Of a stretch of 64,000 nucleotides of DNA, positions 2,200 through 41,900 are shown piece after piece (position 1 is the stretch's first letter; each line of letters begins with the position of its first letter). Position numbers and translations under genes: made by a program. The notes beneath the pieces are model-generated. The model was not told the DNA's origin. It made no database searches and was given only the letters and a program-made list of their open reading frames with translations. Source of the DNA: an uncultured virus (IMG/VR IMGVR_UViG_2700989568_000007) (taxonomy: Duplodnaviria > Heunggongvirae > Uroviricota > Caudoviricetes); the IMG/VR virus record IMGVR_UViG_2700989568_000007. One strand, 5' to 3'.

Positions 2200-2282
2200 C
2201 GTTTTACACCTCCAGAACCCACTGGAACCCCTCTTCAGACGCTCTAGAATCGATTTTATGAACCACAGTAAGGAAAACTATC

Positions 2283-2525
2283 ATGGTATACCCGACGAAC
2301 GTCGTAGCGCTCGTTGAGAGCGATTTTTTGGCTAACGCTCGCGAACTCATGAAGGATCGTGAAAAGGCATTCAGTCTTTACGAGTGGTCACTGAAATGTT
2401 TGCACACTGGCGAACACAAAGACCTGATTGAGCAGCTCCTTGGCGAGCTAATCAACGAGGTTTTTGCTCTGCAAGTTCAGCTTCATGGTAGACAAAATGA
2501 TCAGTCAAAAAAAGTAAGTAAGTAG
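2283..2525 (+). CDS. Phage hypothetical protein
   Basis: 80-aa ORF with AAGGA RBS. Confidence 0.75.
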   Translation: MVYPTNVVALVESDFLANARELMKDREKAFSLYEWSLKCLHTGEHKDLIEQLLGELINEVFALQVQLHGRQNDQSKKVSK

Positions 2526-2531
2526 TTACCG

Positions 2532-2560
2532 TTTACAATGTATCATAGTGGTTGTAGAAT
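2532..2560 (+). promoter_or_regulatory. Sigma70-like promoter TTTACA-N17-TAGAAT
   Basis: -35 at 2532-2537, -10 at 2555-2560, 17-bp spacer. A TAAGTAAGTAGTTACC motif lies immediately upstream. Confidence 0.7.
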
Positions 2561-2566
2561 GATGTC

Positions 2567-3000
2567 GATTTCGACCTGAATCGAAATCTCGATCTGATGG
2601 GTGGGGGGTAGCGTCACTGGCGTCAGGTTTAAAAAAGCTCACTACCAGCGTAGAACCGGCACCGTTTAGGGGTTGGGGAAGGGGGAACCAAAGTGAGCAG
2701 AGAGAAGGGTCACTTTATGATTGTCGAGTCTGGAGTGTTTCGAGAGGTTGAATCCAGTACTCCCCTTCATAAAGTGTGGGAAGATCTCGGTTCTGGGGTG
2801 CTGTCATCCATAACTTCCCAAGCCTAAGCTGGCAGTAGACTTAGGTCATAACTTTTCAGGTTATGAAACGACCAGGTTGGTGAGGATTTTTTACTCACCT
2901 CCCTGGGAGAGTATTACCTGAAAAGACAACCTCTCACTTCGTTCGAGGTGAACTTCGCTCACTTCGTTCGCTCAGTTCAGGTTTTAATAAAACCTGTTCT
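2567..3000 (+). ncRNA. Candidate structured non-coding RNA or long leader upstream of RNase H
   Basis: No ORF of 60 aa or more in 2526-2947; about nine consecutive inverted repeats and several G-runs; begins about 7 nt after a good -10 box. Confidence 0.5.
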
Positions 3001-3106
3001 GGGAAGTAAGTTTTTCTTTTCTAAAATTTTTAATATTTACACGCACGTGTGCGCGCACGCGCGAGGGAAAAAAAAAATCGTCGCGGCGCGCGATTCTGGA
3101 GCCAAA

Positions 3107-3715
3107 ATGACGACCAAGACCCCAGCCCGGCAACATACTGGCTGCCGCACGAAGTCCAAAGCCAGATACCAAACCCACCAGCAATCCCGTACCAACTTCA
3201 AAACCCCCGTAGTCGAGTTCAATCCCCAGCTCAAAACCGTAAAAGTATTCAGTGATGGCTCTTGCCTCAAAAATCCGGGCGGGCCTGGCGGTTACGGCAT
3301 CGTTCTCCAGTATCGAGGCGAAGAGCGCGAGCTTTCTGAGGGCTTCCACAGCACCACAAACAATCGCATGGAGATGATGGGCGCCCTGATAGCTTTGGAA
3401 CGCCTTAAATTCTCCTGCAACGTGATCCTGCACTCAGATAGCCAGTATCTCAAAAATGGTAAGACCCTCTGGATGAAGGGGTGGAAACAAAATGGTTGGA
3501 TCACTGCTGACAAGAAGCCTGTTAAGAATGTCGACCTCTGGAAACGACTCGATTTAGCCGCCAGTCGCCACAATGTCAGGTGGAACTGGGTAAAGGGCCA
3601 CGCCGGGCATCGAGAAAACGAAATATGCGACAGGCTGGCCAAGATCGCAGCATATGCGGCAGCGGATACTCCACACAAAAAAGATGCTGGTTTTTTGGTA
3701 CAAAATGATAAGTAA
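3107..3715 (+). CDS. rnhA: Ribonuclease HI with basic N-terminal extension
   Basis: Catalytic motifs FSDGSC, TNNRME, SDSQY and [18 protein letters not shown]. Start moved to ATG 3107 (GGAG RBS). Confidence 0.93.
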
Positions 3716-3861
3716 GTATTTACCTATAATTTTGTATCATGTATCTTACCCATCGTCAGGATGACAACGTGCTGGTTAGGCACGGTTCCAAGGATGGAAC
3801 GCAAAAAAACGGCGGCTGGACATTCCAGCCGCAACTCTTTCTGACATTGAAAGGATTTCAA

Positions 3862-4401
3862 ATGGCACATCAAACGCCTTCCTCTTCTCTTAAGAAACAC
3901 CCCCGTTCGCTACGACTCATCCTGGCGGAGTTATTCTCCGGCCGCGTGTCTGCACGCCTGTCCGAACTGGAAGAGAAAGTAGGTCAAATGGAGCATCGTC
4001 TGGATGACCATGCGGTGGCCATCTCTAACCTGGGGGCTCGTGTGGCAATGGGGGAAGTGATGAAGACCCGAACCGCAAAAATCCTGCGAGACACCTGGGG
4101 CGTGCGAGCCAATCAAACGCGCATGGAGAGCTCAGATGGATCAATTTCAACGAAAAAGACTACTTCCAATGGCCTACGGGCTGATCACGATTTGTCTGGC
4201 AGCCGTAGCAATACCGTCGACTCAGGCGTTGCTGATGCCGGACTCATGCAAAACGGTTTCGCAGCAGACGCCGGCACCAGTCACGGAAAGCACAACCAGC
4301 ATCACCACCATGCCCCGGTCTGCCACTCTGGATGGGATGCGGTTGGATTCGATTCCTCAAGTTCGTCCTGCGACTCCGGATCTTCCTCCTGCTGCGACTG
4401 A
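3862..4401 (+). CDS. Phage hypothetical protein, coiled coil plus His/Ser/Cys low-complexity tail
   Basis: ATG 3862 with AAGGA RBS; ends ...SSSSSCDSGSSSCCD. Confidence 0.65.
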   Translation: MAHQTPSSSLKKHPRSLRLILAELFSGRVSARLSELEEKVGQMEHRLDDHAVAISNLGARVAMGEVMKTRTAKILRDTWGVRANQTRMESSDGSISTKKTTSNGLRADHDLSGSRSNTVDSGVADAGLMQNGFAADAGTSHGKHNQHHHHAPVCHSGWDAVGFDSSSSSCDSGSSSCCD

Positions 4402-6393: not shown

Positions 6394-9300
6394 TTAAATC
6401 CTTCCTCCAACCCCTTTAAATTTTTCGATAAACGCCCCAATTTTTTGGAATACGGTCTGCTTTTTCGTTTTGTACTGAGGATTCAGCGGACTGAGTTTTG
6501 GTAGCGTCTCATTTAACTCCGTCCCATTTTCGGTAGCATATTCCCGTTTGAGTGATGTACGGATATAGCGCCTTGCCGCCTCTTCATTGAGGTTTTCTTC
6601 CTTAATCAACGCTTCCGCTTCCCGTTGCTGTTCACGCTGAGCATAGGTAAAGAATGCATCAATGATACTGGCCTTATCCGGCATGTCATCAAGGTTAGTT
6701 TGCTGAATAAAGTCAACAATCAGACCTTCTTTGGCACGGTTGCCCAGACTTGAGCGGATTAAGCGTCGGACCTCTTCAGTCAGGGCTTCTTTACCCTTTT
6801 TCTGACGGTTGTGGTCAAAAATCAGGCCCAGAATGTAGTCCAGGTTAATCTCTTGCGACTTGAGCAGGTCAATTTCAAACACCACGTCATCCCAGTCCGT
6901 GGTTGATGTATCCCTGTCGTTTGCTGCTTTTTCACGTCGCTGCCAGTCCCGGATATCATTGTAAGCTGAGCGGTAGTCCTGAACTTTACGTTCGGCAGGG
7001 AGGCGAATGGTTTGTAATTCAGCAAATTTTTCATCATCCACGTAGTGCTCTGCTTTAAAGGTTTCTACCGCTTCCGGGTCACTAATATCAACCTTCTGCA
7101 GGGCTTTCAGCGTGGCAAATTCATCGTAGTTTTGCAGGATGTTTTCTGCCCGCAGATATTCACCAAACAGTTTGACGAAGGCTTTTTTCTCTTTTTCACT
7201 GTCGATACTGGCAGGGTCAGGGAAGCGCTGCTCCAGCTCCGAAACAATAGACATAAAACCTCGTTTAGCTTCGCCGGTTGCCGCATCGCTAAAGCCCTGC
7301 ATGTACTCTTCGTAGCTTTTTTCCAGTACCACATTCTTGGTGTTTTTGTCGCCAAAAAGTGTAATGGCATCAATGGTGGGACGCTCCAGGTCCCTGAAAG
7401 TCACGATATTGCCGAAGGTTTTGGTTGCATCATAGATACGGTTGGTGCGGGAAAATGCCTGCATCAGGCCGTGATAACGCAGGTTTTTGTCAACGAACAG
7501 AGTGTTAAGCGTCGGGGCATCAAAGCCGGTTAAGAACATTCCCACCACGATGAGAAGGTCAATATCCTGATTTTTCACTCGTTGAGCTAAATCGCGGTAG
7601 TAGTTCTGGAAGCCGTTACTGTCGGTACTGAAATTGGTTTTAAAGTGGTTGTTATAGTCATCAATAGCTGAATCCAGGAATTCCTTTGCGCTGCTGTTCA
7701 TCGCGCTGGTATCAAAGCTTTCGTCAGTAATATCACCAATGGCGCTTTGCTCTTCATTTGCAGCAAAGGAGAAGATGGTTGCAACCCGAAGGCGTTTATA
7801 GCTGCCTGATTTTTTTGCTGCTTCTTCCTGTAGCATTTTAAACGTCGAGTAATAAGCTTTTGCCGCTTCCACACTGCTAACTGCTAACATGGCGTTAAAG
7901 CCCTTAGCTCCCGGGAAGGTTCGGTGCGTTTTCTGACGGAAGTTATTGATAATGTATTGCGTTATTTCCTGGATACGTAGTGGGTGCAAAAATGCCTGTT
8001 GGTTTTCAGCCGCGCTGAGTTTTTTCTCATCAGTTTCCGTTTCAAGAGACTTAAACCGTGGGCGGACATCGTTATAGTCCACCTTAAACTTCAGCACCTT
8101 TTCATCACGAATCGCATCAGTAATGACGTAAGAATGTAATTCACGCCCGAAGACGCTGGCGGTGGTTTCTGCCCCCAGTGCATTTTCCGGGAAAATAGGC
8201 GTACCAGTAAAACCAAACTGATAAAAGCGTCTGAATTTCTTTTTGAGGTTTTTCTGGGCCTCACCAAACTGGCTGCGGTGACACTCATCAAAGATAAACA
8301 CCACCTGCTGCTGATAGACGGGCAGGTCAGCTTCGGCTTTCATCAGGTTATTGAGTTTCTGAATGGTTGTGACGATAATTTTGTTATCGTCCTTATCCAG
8401 GTTTCTTCTGAGGCCTGCTGTATTATCCGAACCATTGACACTGTCCGGAGAGAAGCGCTGATACTCCTTCATGGTCTGGTAATCGAGGTCTTTCCTGTCG
8501 ACCACGAAGAAGACTTTATCAATAAAGTCCAGCTCCGTAGCCAGTCGTGCAGCCTTAAAGCTGGTCAGGGTTTTGCCTGACCCGGTGGTATGCCAGATAA
8601 ATCCACCGCTTTCGGGTTTTGACCAGTTCTTCGCTTTAAAAGAGCTGTTGATTTTCCAGAGAATGCGCTCAGTGGCTGCTATCTGATAGGGACGCATGGC
8701 GAGCAGAGTCTGGCTGCTGTCAAACACGCTGTAATTAAACAGAACATTCAGCAGGGTATGCTTCTGGAAGAAAGTGGCGGTAAAGTCCTTCAGGTCCTTA
8801 ATCAAGGTGTTATCCGATTTCGCCCAGTTCATGGTGAAATCAAAGCTGTTTTTATCCCGTTTAGTGGTACTGGCAAAGTACCGGGTATCAGTCCCGTTGG
8901 AAATCACGAAGAGTTGCAGGTATTTAAACAGGGAGTTATCGCTGTTAAAGCTTTCCTTGCTGTAACGGTGTATCTGGTTAAAGGCTTCACGAATCGCCAC
9001 GCCACGCTTTTTGAGTTCGATTTGCACCAGCGGCAGGCCGTTGACCAGAACTGTTACATCATAACGGTTAGCGTGTGAGCCGGTCTGTTCAAACTGCTGA
9101 ATGACCTGCACCTTGTTGCGCAGCAGGTTCTTTTTATCTATCAGATAGATGTTTTCCAGACGACCGTCATCAAACGTGAAATCACAGATATAGTCGATAT
9201 GGATTTTACGGGTTTTGTCCAGGCTGCTGTCACTAGGGCTGTCCAGATACTGCTCTGCGAAGCGCCGCCATTCACTTTCGTTAAACACCACACCATTAAG

Positions 9301-9510
9301 ATGCTGAAGCTGGTCCCGCACATTCGCCAGCATCGCAGTCCGTGACTTTACAGAGATAAACTCATAACCCTGATTAAGAAGGTCCTGAATCAGCTCCCGC
9401 TCAAGGTCCGATTCGCTTTGGTAGCTGTCGCCAGCATCCTGAACTTTGGAGTATTTATCAAGGACGATAAAGTTATTGGATTCAGCAATGGTATGTATCT
9501 GTTGTGTCAT
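6394..9510 (-). CDS. hsdR: Type I restriction enzyme R subunit, EcoR124 (type IC) family
   Basis: Nuclease motif QIELK, Walker [18 protein letters not shown] and QAFSRTNR. 1038 aa from ATG 9510 ([16 protein letters not shown]). Confidence 0.97.
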
Positions 9511-9626
9511 GGTGCATCCTGTGCGTCGTCTGGCAAAGTCCGGAAGGGTATCAGAAGCATCTTCCGGCATTCATAAAACCTGATACCGGGCGGGTGAGAA
9601 CAAACCCTGCCGGTATCAATGGTCCG

Positions 9627-10852
<1,226 letters not shown>

Positions 10853-10856
<4 letters not shown>

Positions 10857-12409
10857 TTCTGCACCTCGTCACCTTCAATCTCAGCCACAATTGTATCAAT
10901 GTCTTTACGTAACTGATCGATTTTGCTGACGGTGGTTTTTAGCTCGACATTCAGCTCTGCAATATCGACAATTTCGCGGGTATTCAAGGCTTCGACGTAG
11001 CTGCTGACAGACAGGTTGTAATCATTCCCAGCCACTTTCTCGAAGGCTACAGATTTCGCCAGATGGTCAACATCTGCTTTGCTGGCAAAGACCTGCATAA
11101 TCTTTTCGATATGATCATCAGTCAGGATATTGTTATTGGTTTCTTTCTTAAACAACCCGCTGGCGTCAATAAATTGCACGCGGGTATCTGTTTTGTGCTT
11201 GGACAGCACCAGAATGTTAACAGCAATAGTGGTGCCGAAGAACAGGTTTGGTGCCAGAGAAATCACCGTTTCAACATAGTTGTTGTCGACCAGGTACTGG
11301 CGGATTTTCTGCTCTGCTCCGCCACGGTAGAAAATACCGGGGAAGCAAACTATTGCTGCACGTCCCTTAGCAGACAGGTAGTTAAGCGCATGAAGCACGA
11401 ACGCAAAGTCAGCTTTTGATTTTGGTGCCAGCACACCTGCCGGAGCGAAACGCTCATCGTTAATCAGGGTCGGGTCGTCACTGCCAATCCACTTAACTGA
11501 GTACGGTGGGTTAGAGACGATCGCGTCAAACGGTTTTTCATCGCAAAAGTGAGGCTCAGTCAGGGTATTCCCCAGTCTGATATCAAATTTGTCGTAGTTG
11601 ATATTGTGCAGAAACATGTTCATACGCGCCAGGTTGAACGTCGTATGGTTGATTTCCTGACCAAAAAAGCCTTCTTCGATGATGTGGTTATCAAAATGTT
11701 TTTTCGCCTGCAGCAGCAGTGAGCCCGAGCCTGCAGCAGGGTCATAGATTTTGTTGACGTGAGTCTGACCGTGCATCGCAAGCTGAGCAATCAACTTAGA
11801 GACATGCTGTGGCGTGAAGAACTCTCCGCCAGACTTACCGGCATTCGCCGCATAGTTAGAAATCAGGAACTCGTAGGCATCACCAAACAGATCAATCTGG
11901 TGCTCGTTAAAATTCCCCAGCTTCAGCCCCTCCACGCCTTTCAGAACGGCGGCAAGACGGCTGTTTTTATCTTTTACGGTGTTCCCCAGTCGATTGCTGG
12001 TCGTATCGAAATCGGCGAACAGGCCTTTGATGTCGGCCTCGGACGGATAGCCGTAGGCAGAGCTTTCAATAGCAACGAAGATACTGTTTAAATCAGCATT
12101 CAGCCTGTCGTTGGTGTTAGCTTTAGCGGCAACGTTGCAGAACAGCTGGCTCGGGTAGATGAAATAGCCTTTAGTCCTGATGGCATCGTCTTTGATGTCA
12201 TCGGTAATGATGCTGTCATCAAGTGCAGCATAATGTATGCTCTCATCCCCTGCTTCCATGTAGCTGGAAAAATTCTCACTAATGAAGCGATAGAAAAGTG
12301 CACCGAGTACATACTGTTTAAAATCCCATCCATCCACTGAGCCCCTGACATCATTGGCTATGGCCCAGATTTGACGGTGTAGCTCTGCACGCTGCTGAAG
12401 GCTTGTCAT
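10853..12409 (-). CDS. hsdM: Type I R-M methyltransferase subunit
   Basis: [17 protein letters not shown] and NPPY motifs; 4-bp overlap with hsdS. Confidence 0.97.
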
Positions 12410-38931: not shown

Positions 38932-41900
38932 ATGTCACAAAACGTAGAGTTTATCCTGTCGCTGGAAGACAAACAGTTTACGGCGTCAATCGACCGGGCG
39001 GGTAAATTACTTACCAAATTTGGCGAGCGGGCTACCAAACCGGCTCAAAAAATTAAAAACCTCGAGCGCTCTCTGGGTTCGGTCTCCAGCATTCTTGGCG
39101 CTCTTGAAACCAGACTCAATTCTACGGCAGACAAACTACAGGACGTAGCTGCCGGTTTTGAACTCGTTTCCAACACCTCTCGAAAGGCACAACGTGAACT
39201 GTCCGCTATCAGCACTGATTTGCGGACATTCACAGATCGCGTTGATTCAGCAACATCGTCTACGCACAAGTTCCTGGCCTCATTGCGGAAGGTTCAGTCG
39301 GAACTCAATGAGTTTTCTGATTGGGTTAAATACGCAGGAGACCATGCCGGTAAATTCAACACTGAGATCAAGGGTGCCACTACTTCTCTTGGTGGGATGA
39401 ACACCAGACTAAATGCGACCAGCAAGCGTCTGAGCAATTGGGGAACAACGACAAGCCAGGCGGCCGAGGGTTTAAAAAAAGTCAAAGATCAGATGGATGG
39501 CGTTATTCGAAGCCAGCAGCTGATCAGCCGTCCAGTCAGGGTCAGAACAACCACAACGGGTGGGGGAGGCAGCGGAGGTGGCGCTGATCGATTTACCGCT
39601 GCGCCCCATCGCGGTGGTGGTCGTGAAAATGGCGTCTTTTATGGATTACGCGGCAATATTTTCCTTCTGGGAGAAATTGGGGATGCTGCCAGAACGGTTA
39701 CTGACATCCTGTTTGGTTGGCAGAAGCCGATCGTAGAGGCTGCGGCCGAAATGCAGCGTATGCGTGTCATGTTGCGTGGCTTGAACAAGGATAAAGTCAA
39801 TCCTGAAGAAGCCGCTGCTCAAGACATGCAGTATATCGTGAACATGGCGAAAAACGCCCCATTTGCGATGCAGTCTTTAACCGACTCATTTGTGAAGTTC
39901 CGTTCTGCTGGGCTCGATCCTACTGATGGCTCGTTAAAGGCACTGGTGGACTCAGTCGCACGTTTTGGTGGCGATAGTGAGTTGCTTAAACGAGCGGCGG
40001 TGGCTGTCCAACAGATGTCTGGTAAAGGCGTTGTGTCGATGGAAGAGCTCCGCCAGCAATTGGGTGAAGCGGTTCCAAATGCGATGAAGGCCATGGCAGA
40101 TGCGGCCGGTATCACGATGGGTGAGCTAACCAAAGCCGTCTCCAGTGGGACCGTTGAAGCGAAACATGCTCTTTCATTGATGTTTGTTGGTTTGCGTGCG
40201 GAAAACGAAAATGCCGCCAAAGATATGATGCAAACCTACACCGGTGCGTTGGCGCAGCTGCAAACCTCTTTCACTCTGTTTGCCGATCGAGTAGGGCAGG
40301 CTGGATATCTTGATTCTCTGACCAAGGGGATGAAAGAGCTGGCGGCCGTAATGAACAGCGCTGAAGGCATTTCGTTCGCTAATTCACTGGGAGAGGGGCT
40401 TACCACCGCGATTGATGGCCTGCGCGAGCTGGCGCAATGGTTGGCTAAGAATCAGGAGTTGGTTATTACGCTGGGCAAAATTGTCGCCGGAATGGTGGCA
40501 TTTAAAATGCTCAGAGCGGGCATTTTAGGTGTTGTCGGCGCCGGCGGCCAGATGCTTTCCACCTTCATGAAAATGTCCACTGTAATCCAGACACCATTCA
40601 CGCTGGGAGCGACGGCGGTCACTCGTTTCAATCGTGCTGCACGCATGGGACTGGCACCAATCCCATCGCTCATTTTTGCCATTCGTGGCGCGATTACGGG
40701 GCTGAAAGGGGCATTCGCTGGGCTGACTGCGTTTATCGCAGCAAACCCGATTGGCTTTGTGTTTACTGCCGCAATGACAGCAGTGGCGGGGCTGATCACT
40801 TACATGACTATGCTCCGCAGCGAAACGTCAAAAGTCGTTGATGAGATCCGCAAAATCCCCGAGGCGATGACGGCCGCCAAGCGCGCACAAATGGCGGATT
40901 ACAAGGAACGTCTTGATCGCCAAATAGCTCAGAAGGAGCAGGAGCTAAATTCTGGTGAAAAAATGGTCTACGGACCAGGGATGGCCGGAACCACTATCAA
41001 AATTGACCGTAAGAAGGTCGAGTCCGAACTGAGCGACCTTCGCAAACAACGCGATAGAGTTAGTGGGACTATTGAACTGGGGGACACTGCCGTCTCCAAA
41101 CGTCTCGCAAAAGAGGCGGCTGAATCTCAGATTGAAAAAATCCGCGATGAAAACAAAGATTTTTCGGCCAAGTTCGTGAAAGCGCGCCAGGAAGCTTTGG
41201 AGAAAATTCAGAAGATCAATGACGACAAGTCTTTGTCCGATGATGAAAAGAACAAGCTGCTGGGGCCATTACGAGAAACGGTAAATAAATCTTATCTGGT
41301 ACCAGCCCAAAAGTTGGTTGAGTCTTTATCATCGCGCAAGACCGCAACTGAAAAGCAGATCGCACACTTCAGCGATCTGCTGGAAAAGGCAAAAAAAGAA
41401 GGAAACACAGAACAGGTACAGAAGCTGCAGGGCAGTATTCGTGGCTATCAGGAACATCTTGAAACTGTTGCTCAGGAACTGACACAGGCTGAGTTTGAAC
41501 GCGATAACGCGGCGAAAACCGGGAAGGGCGTGAAGACCAACCAGGGAACAGTGCTTGGGTTGGGCACCAGCGACAAAGGCGCTGATAAAGCGCTTGCGCA
41601 GTACATGCGCAACCAGATGGACTCTGCGGTTTACCAACGCACGCTGCCTGATGGCACACCAATGATGGATTTTGAAGGAAAACCTATCATTGGGCCGAAG
41701 CAGCTTAAAACTCAGCTTAACCTGCAGAAAGCCTCAACCGCATCTTCTCTGGAAAAGATGAGCGAGAAGGAGCGTGCAGCCGCCATAGCCGCATTAACCA
41801 AAGCTCGTGAACAAGATGCCGCTGCTGCCGAGAGGGCAGGGAAGCGTACCGCGAATGCCTCGGAACGCGCCGCGAAGAGGGAGGAAAGTGCGCAACAGAA

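Follow-up and report, generated by a model that had tools for sequence, protein, structure and literature searches.

A structured RNA joined to an origin-like DNA module in SSU5-type phage-plasmids

What occupies the gap between the small gene that ends at position 2525 and the RNase HI gene (rnhA) that starts at ATG 3107 in the viral record IMGVR_UViG_2700989568_000007? The window, a stretch of 64,000 nucleotides, was given a first-pass annotation that read the gap as a promoter-driven, multi-hairpin RNA and proposed that RNA and RNase H form a module acting as a lytic origin or, failing that, that the RNA is a new regulator. The window is a Klebsiella phage-plasmid of the SSU5 type: positions 2200-3900 match non-mobilizable IncFIB plasmids of ~110 kb, with 699 plasmid records matched and 603 of these at 80% coverage or more, 12 of the 17 phage matches span most of the region, with phage SSU5 among the phages matched, and the genes, in the order nucleotide-metabolism block, 280-aa gene, adenine methyltransferase, 80-aa gene, gap and rnhA, are arranged as in phage-plasmids of the SSU5 type. 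The plasmid initiator RepA is encoded ~18 kb from the RNA locus in both SSU5 and its relative Cyrano, and the locus is therefore not the known plasmid origin. Elsewhere in the window, the left edge (1-187) carries the start of an IS5-type transposase, a type I restriction-modification operon has been inserted on the minus strand at 6394-12409, and a long inverted repeat with an AT-rich core, with self-complementary matches in many relatives, lies between the methyltransferase and the 80-aa gene (2087-2210).

Covariation, strand asymmetry and published expression together give good support to a structured, non-coding plus-strand RNA, so far without description, that spans approximately 2566-2935 (Table 1). 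All 10 stems of the first-pass annotation are real, being perfect Watson–Crick pairings at the coordinates it gave, although one of them (2978-85/2989-96) is lost in the distant subfamily; the G-runs, the 13-bp direct repeat (at 2933 and 2958), the alternating purine-pyrimidine tract and the A10 run (3068-3077) that it listed are likewise all present. Compared with dinucleotide-shuffled sequences, a test set beforehand, the fold scores z = -4.87 on the plus and -5.90 on the minus strand with none of 100 shuffles as good, while two neighbouring coding stretches used as controls score -0.59 and -1.58. The alignment comprises 24 distinct rows chosen by eye for diversity (17 close and 7 distant), in which 28 of 79 base pairs distributed over 11 helices show compensatory (two-sided) changes and 99.6% of the 1896 cells are paired, against only 33-46% in slid controls. 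Two-sided changes fill 178 cells versus 51 ± 6 upon shuffling, a value that none of 500 shuffles reaches; most of them derive from the single split between close and distant rows, so that independent events are fewer than cells, and part arise within the close group. G-U combinations occur in 151 cells and A-C combinations in 2 when read on the plus strand, an excess that identifies this as the RNA strand. The 3' end is placed between ~2935 and ~3075. The candidate long-range pairing of the P4 loop is invariant over its 8 bp and hence provides no covariation. A G-quadruplex reading was rejected, as the distant subfamily does not share the second G-run; this run could pair with the C-tract 2762-2765 only after a register shift.

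Table 1. Coordinates of the features at the RNA locus (window numbering; a full stop denotes no strand)
Feature	Position	Strand	Observations
80-aa gene, function unassigned (phrog_5343)	2283..2525	+	Fixed neighbour; RNA lies 3' of it in 74/74 close loci
Operator-like palindrome abutting the -35 box, putative repressor site	2516..2531	.	TAAGTA-type palindrome at the same position across homologues
Sigma-70-type promoter	2532..2560 (-35 2532-2537, -10 2555-2560)	+	Layout constant in 82/86 loci, spacer diverging
Structured non-coding RNA, about 370 nt	2566..2937	+	Covariation; expressed in Cyrano lysogen (PMC9928086); 5' end inferred from the -10 box
P1, 5'-terminal hairpin, sequence variable	2567..2588	+	Folds in 24/24 rows despite 50-71% identity in divergent relatives
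P2, pairs some of the first G-run (2600-2603 with 2615-2618)	2592..2628	+	12 pairs, 4 compensatory, 100% paired
P3, around the second purine-rich run	2637..2698	+	Compensatory in 3/5 counted pairs
P4, inner helix 2730-2734/2753-2757, invariant loop AGAGGUUG	2711..2776	+	Compensatory in 6/14 pairs
P5, P6, P7, P8/P9, back-to-back helices	2777..2906	+	Compensatory in 12/34 pairs
Candidate long-range pairing, 2743-2750 (P4 loop) with 2927-2934, overlapping an arm of H1	2743..2934	+	8 bp invariant in 24/24 rows; inference
Candidate pseudoknot, P7 loop with 2919-2923 (the 'alternative' stem of the first-pass annotation)	2854..2923	+	Complementarity retained in the distant subfamily with one pair swapped
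H1, hairpin with tandem G·A pairs and GNA triloop, template strand	2930..2948	-	Each of the four bases occurs as loop N among 86 loci
H2, the other G·A/GNA hairpin (core 2957-2971), enclosed in a covarying stem	2949..2979	-	A-C on plus = G-T on minus in 3/24 rows
AT-rich tract, length variable; candidate unwinding element	3004..3038	.	AT fraction 0.8-0.9 in 84/84 measured loci; spacer 32-61 nt
Alternating purine-pyrimidine tract ending in CGCGCGAG (3058-3065)	3039..3065	.	CGCGCGAG in 80/86 loci (79 counted, 1 read from its row)
A-run, where the retained unit ends on its 3' side; also U-tract to a terminator-like hairpin (3081-3093) on the minus strand	3068..3077	+	Break points 3051-3074
rnhA, RNase HI with basic N-terminal extension, optional neighbour	3107..3715	+	Full-length homology, catalytic residues present

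The RNA is usually more conserved than the genes that flank it. Its core (2590-2975) is 91-98% identical in five close relatives out of six representatives, and the methyltransferase, the 80-aa gene and rnhA are mostly 63-91% identical in close relatives, with one Klebsiella relative at 95-98% in two of these. In a distant subfamily, made up of Cronobacter JZ38, Enterobacter CP102 and five viral contigs, identity in the core is 69%. A query of 2515-3110 matches 687 plasmid records, mostly at 90% identity or above, and phage-plasmids of the SSU5 type are frequent in Klebsiella, E. coli, Enterobacter and Salmonella. The window itself is a mosaic with a break at 2588: promoter and first hairpin are closest to Klebsiella-type relatives, the RNA core 3' of the break is closer to the SSU5 type (98% versus 94%). 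No match at the gathering threshold was obtained in a scan of Rfam 15 (best E 1.5 in an E-value scan), tRNA and tmRNA scans found none, and a covariance model of the core (173 positions) recovered no member beyond those already known in 29 sources and had no match in five further records, the latter search being run without positive control. Looking for distant homologues via the upstream 80-aa protein yielded two close loci in genome contigs and one real match in 401 genomes; the range of the RNA in this analysis is confined to enterobacterial SSU5-group phage-plasmids. The literature searched, with subscription papers largely outside it, describes neither the RNA nor an SSU5 lytic origin, and the searchable part of the supplements to the Fremin 2023 catalogue (PMC10690425) contains no k-mer match; a prior listing elsewhere in them is possible.

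The promoter proposed at first pass, TTTACA-N17-TAGAAT, is found directly upstream, and the same arrangement of -35 box, 17-nt spacer and -10 box recurs in 82 of 86 homologous loci. By itself such a match does not exceed chance (2 sites per 6 kb versus 5.2 in shuffled sequence); it is the combination of operator-like palindrome, -35 box, 17-nt spacer and TANNAT -10 box that is matched in 82 of the 86 loci. A different palindrome takes the operator position in the distant subfamily, and the palindrome may be a repressor site.

Evidence for a discrete transcript comes from published RNA-seq of Cyrano, a phage-plasmid of E. coli LF82, which lists the gene CYRAN_81 as a moron with expression 12-fold over background (PMC9928086). 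CYRAN_81 is a 44-aa frame inside the RNA (window ORF 2693-2827), and this internal frame is expressed distinctly from its neighbours in all five conditions: its raw counts per base in the published tables exceed those of the upstream gene 10-43-fold and those of rnhA 8-62-fold in the lysogen, or 7-32-fold and 4-33-fold, respectively, after 200 nt are added to each length (PMC9928086). The data set is stranded, although its gene counts may not be. In LB, CYRAN_81 reaches the level of the putative repressor and, in the lysogen, about that of repA as well; the tables place primase, Pol III alpha, SSB and RecA near background in the lysogen (PMC9928086). Four further RNA runs yield no level, strand or end points: three are sets of contigs whose depth is flat throughout the region, and the fourth, of raw reads, contributed one read. 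As a separate observation, Cyrano CYRAN_43 (record 40268-40822), annotated as a hypothetical gene, stands 723-fold over background in the lysogen (PMC9928086) and may hide another abundant RNA.

Immediately 3' of the RNA lies a module that appears to be conserved as DNA. On the minus strand each 13-bp repeat forms a stem, tandem G·A pairs, two base pairs and a GNA loop, and the middle base of the H1 loop is distributed 80/4/1/1 across 86 loci. The SSU5 record of 103 kb and the window each contain the motif exactly twice, in every case at the RNA locus. Tandem G·A pairs stabilise a hairpin stem, although the folding computation did not show it here. Nearest-neighbour DNA folding gives z values of 0.09 (minus) and -0.62 (plus) in the window and -1.94 on both strands of a distant homologue, i.e. 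no strand preference, with a model that may not score sheared pairs; to our understanding, sheared G·A pairs are not scored by it. GNA mini-hairpins are more stable as DNA than as RNA and are found at the priming sites of G4 and ssiA, according to PMC13037366. Downstream of the hairpins follow the AT-rich tract, the alternating tract and an A-run whose length varies from 0 to 9 among the 86 loci. In some relatives the sequence beyond is replaced by betT, unrelated genes or a truncated rnhA with the RNA unchanged, and since these replacements begin at 3051-3074 the retained unit runs from the operator through the A-run. A promoter-driven plus-strand RNA of ~370 nt is made and accumulates, and it is fused to a co-conserved origin-like DNA module independently of rnhA.

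A possible function of this module is suggested by its occurrence elsewhere. A G·A/GNA hairpin followed by CGCGCGAG 5-35 nt downstream was found at 24 viral loci, 13 of which fall inside genes of initiator families (one of the 13 by a weak match, E 4e-4), whereas the inverted arrangement, used as control, gave 13 loci with none in an initiator gene; the scan covered 31 of 43 candidate ORFs of the first set and 22 of 22 of the control. The difference (13/24 versus 0/13) has a Fisher p of 0.0009 counted by loci and 0.026 by a rough grouping into about seven independent families. The matches in initiator genes share one orientation relative to transcription, and their hairpins lie in two reading frames and near mid-gene, with closing stems mostly of 4-8 bp; frames, position and stems together indicate that the signature is a signal at the level of DNA. 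In diverse phage initiators (viral loci L409-L430 and L176) it is found mid-gene, translated as SLRS or LT[ST]FE. Hairpin plus CGCGCGAG may be a general origin marker, and the matches in initiator genes would then mark origins. At the RNA locus, hairpin and CGCGCGAG have the same order and orientation but are ~88 nt apart, compared to 5-35 nt in the scanned pattern. The hairpin by itself is widespread, with 118 metagenome loci carrying the 19-mer, most of them not of SSU5 type; 36 of the 77 ORFs listed near such loci were scanned and five are initiators, each with the motif in sense orientation. The lambda O region and P1 repL, checked for the G·A/GNA hairpin, have none. The recurrence of the 3' module inside phage initiator genes thus lends indirect support, at the level of sequence pattern, to a role as origin.

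How does the element compare to origins with known mechanisms? Like the RNA described here, RNA II of ColE1 is promoter-driven, several hundred nucleotides long, rich in hairpins and purine-rich runs and devoid of an ORF, and ColE1 carries one G·A/GNA hairpin of the same architecture ~140 nt past the end of RNA II, albeit on the RNA-sense strand whereas the hairpins here are on the template strand; the RNA could also use the host RNase HI, as in ColE1. Sequence similarity to RNA II is not significant (best E 0.67). An antisense RNA I promoter and a G-tract beside a conserved A-run at the cleavage site are features of the ColE1 type. Upstream of the A-run there is only GAGG(G) and no adjoining G6 run, unlike a ColE1-type locus (L264), and a search for an antisense promoter returned none at 9 of 12 positions and one weak 8-of-12 site at 2937. 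The G-tracts and A-run that had been cited as ColE1 features do not carry that comparison, as the first G-run is partly engaged in a covarying helix, the second is not kept as a run and the length of the A-run differs among loci. The element may nonetheless work like the origins of ColE1 or T4, although by these marks it does not belong to the ColE1 family. T4 uses R-loop origins consisting of a promoter and an AT-rich element, defined by a persistent R-loop and by autonomous plasmid replication after infection and shut off by UvsW (PMC3016281). A promoter followed by an AT-rich element is common to oriF, oriG and the RNA locus, here as sequence layout only (PMC3016281), and Cyrano possesses a T4-like UvsW/UvsX/UvsY/gp32 gene set. 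The T4 origins, however, are ~100 bp long and require no specific RNA sequence, in contrast to ~370 nt of conserved sequence and structure here (PMC3016281), and their promoter depends on MotA rather than being of the sigma-70 type. Origins within initiator genes (lambda O, P1 repL/oriL, DnaD-like rep genes) offer the third parallel: many initiator genes share the hairpin and CGCGCGAG signature, and P1 PkilA has an operator beside its upstream promoter, as does the RNA locus. They differ from it in having an initiator ORF where the RNA gene lies, no iteron array is seen here, and lambda O and P1 repL lack the hairpin.

We tentatively favour the view that the two-part unit is a putative transcription-primed lytic origin in which an RNA takes the place of an initiator protein, a proposal whose chances we put a little short of even. 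It draws on the signature in initiator genes, the restriction of the motif to the RNA locus in SSU5 and the retention of the unit where rnhA is replaced, together with the ColE1-type hairpin, the GNA hairpins at priming sites and the T4-like replication genes of Cyrano. The folded 5' domain would let the 3' end of the transcript remain hybridised across the hairpins and the AT-rich zone. The loop AGAGGUUG may grip its complement at 2927-2934, either within the RNA itself or on the DNA strand that is displaced, and thereby free the template-strand hairpins for loading of the phage helicase or primase; after trimming by RNase HI of phage or host, the end of the RNA could then prime or open the origin. 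Control over firing would rest with the phage replisome genes, whose expression in the lysogen is near background, and not with the promoter of the RNA. The unit would amount to a structured version of the T4 origin with its promoter and unwinding element (PMC3016281). The annotation of Cyrano includes UvsW, UvsY, a gp32-like SSB, RecA, helicase, primase and Pol III alpha, and among its genes 32-123 no initiator other than RepA is named (PMC9928086). Several observations speak against an origin: the RNA is abundant in lysogens in which the replication genes are near background; the hairpins occupy the template strand where ColE1 has its hairpin in RNA sense, are common outside origins and show no strand preference in DNA folding; and GC and TA skews, overall and at four-fold sites, have no switch in three records and the window. 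Moellerella, Pseudomonas phage nickie and a Rhizobium phage match the RNA model nowhere and have no rnhA, and the sister group fills the slot with an RNA that cannot be aligned and has no DNA module.

The last point belongs to the strongest rival, a large structured RNA that is expressed in the plasmid state and acts in trans as a free molecule, for instance as protein scaffold, sponge or counter-defence RNA, the DNA module being a terminator or insulator or an independent travelling signal. The abundance in lysogens, at about the level of the repressor and repA and far above rnhA, and the unrelated RNA of the sister group make such a role nearly as likely as an origin. In 30 Klebsiella plasmids whose 80-aa gene is more distantly related, an operator, promoter and 5' hairpin like those here lead into a different conserved sequence that is equally well folded (z -6.9), gives no match to the RNA model and has no G·A/GNA hairpins at that place. 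At one sister-group locus (L241, 4268-4790) ~500 nt of conserved structured sequence end in an imperfect hairpin of ~150 nt, with no Rfam match. The high identity of the core extends to unpaired loops and candidate pseudoknots, as would suit a trans-acting RNA, and judged from published descriptions OLE, ROOL, GOLLD and raiA are likewise large, multi-helix and abundant RNAs with candidate pseudoknots on mobile elements, although they are larger than the RNA described here, which has no Rfam counterpart. Against a trans role, the origin-like module is attached in 86 of the 86 loci with an H1, and this hairpin is overlapped by the long-range pairing; in addition, SSU5 contains no 13-nt antisense target elsewhere and no partner protein has been identified. 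Should the RNA act in trans, it would be a new abundant prophage RNA with natural variation enough for structure work; should the origin reading hold, ~560 bp become the single candidate for the lytic origin of SSU5-type elements. In either case at least one, and probably two, large RNA families are missing from Rfam. An extension of the origin reading, which we consider unlikely, is that SSU5-group phage-plasmids swapped an initiator gene for an RNA gene: a pseudoknotted RNA would sit at the position of an O/RepL-type ORF, the internal origin signals would have been kept behind it, and the RNA would open the lytic origin by base-pairing, with sister lineages using an unrelated RNA.

The enzyme encoded downstream is a genuine RNase HI, as the first-pass annotation stated. 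It aligns to E. coli RNase HI with E 6e-62, retains the catalytic residues D50, E89, D111, H168 and D175, and carries a basic extension of 41 aa (8 K/R, 1 D/E) that had been estimated at ~45. A longer version starting at 2948 was rejected, as the upstream open frame varies from 21 to 95 codons. The proposed pairing of RNA and RNase H in one module is weak, by contrast, because the RNA persists without an intact rnhA beside it and rnhA is barely co-transcribed with it. Nor is linkage obligatory: an intact adjacent rnhA is missing in 14 of 80 assessable family loci. The 74 close loci anchored on the 80-aa gene all have the RNA, 66 have an intact adjacent rnhA, seven do not and in one the locus ends; adjacent rnhA occurs in none of the seven distant loci, and in the sister group in 10 of 15 (missing in 5). 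Both complete distant plasmids, searched throughout with SSU5 as positive control, contain no rnhA, and among five whole plasmids chosen for having none locally it is absent from four and present only as a fragment in the fifth. As host RNase HI could substitute, the loss of rnhA removes the argument for a module but leaves priming unrefuted. A cis-acting leader or attenuator controlling rnhA is, for similar reasons, very improbable: rnhA does follow in most close loci and the RNA far exceeds rnhA mRNA, as in attenuation, but the RNA is the same in front of betT, unrelated genes or truncated rnhA, and the distant subfamily dispenses with rnhA. At some loci (L159 5065-6677 and L074-L077) the 5' half of rnhA has given way to a cassette of two genes directly past the A-run, and one of its products has weak PHROG matches, including an endolysin family (E 2e-4).

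That the 44-aa ORF encodes the small protein annotated as an expressed moron (PMC9928086) is scarcely credible, since the frame contains a frameshift or stop in 6 of 17 close rows, has no start in 7 of 7 distant rows and accumulates substitutions evenly over the codon positions (15/16/13); the Cyrano 'moron' is instead the RNA, and the small-protein annotation of CYRAN_81 is to be corrected accordingly. The gap had been called ORF-free, which is not literally so in view of this ORF and of a frame open from GTG 2948 into rnhA, but neither is conserved.

A second, smaller element follows rnhA. At 3710-3845 another operator-like palindrome and promoter-like site precede an RNA-like element of ~95 nt (z -5.6) that retains GGA in two hairpin loops and has a terminator-like stem, and that resembles a CsrA-binding small RNA. 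It is present in all three slot types, and where rnhA is missing it lies directly 3' of the main element.
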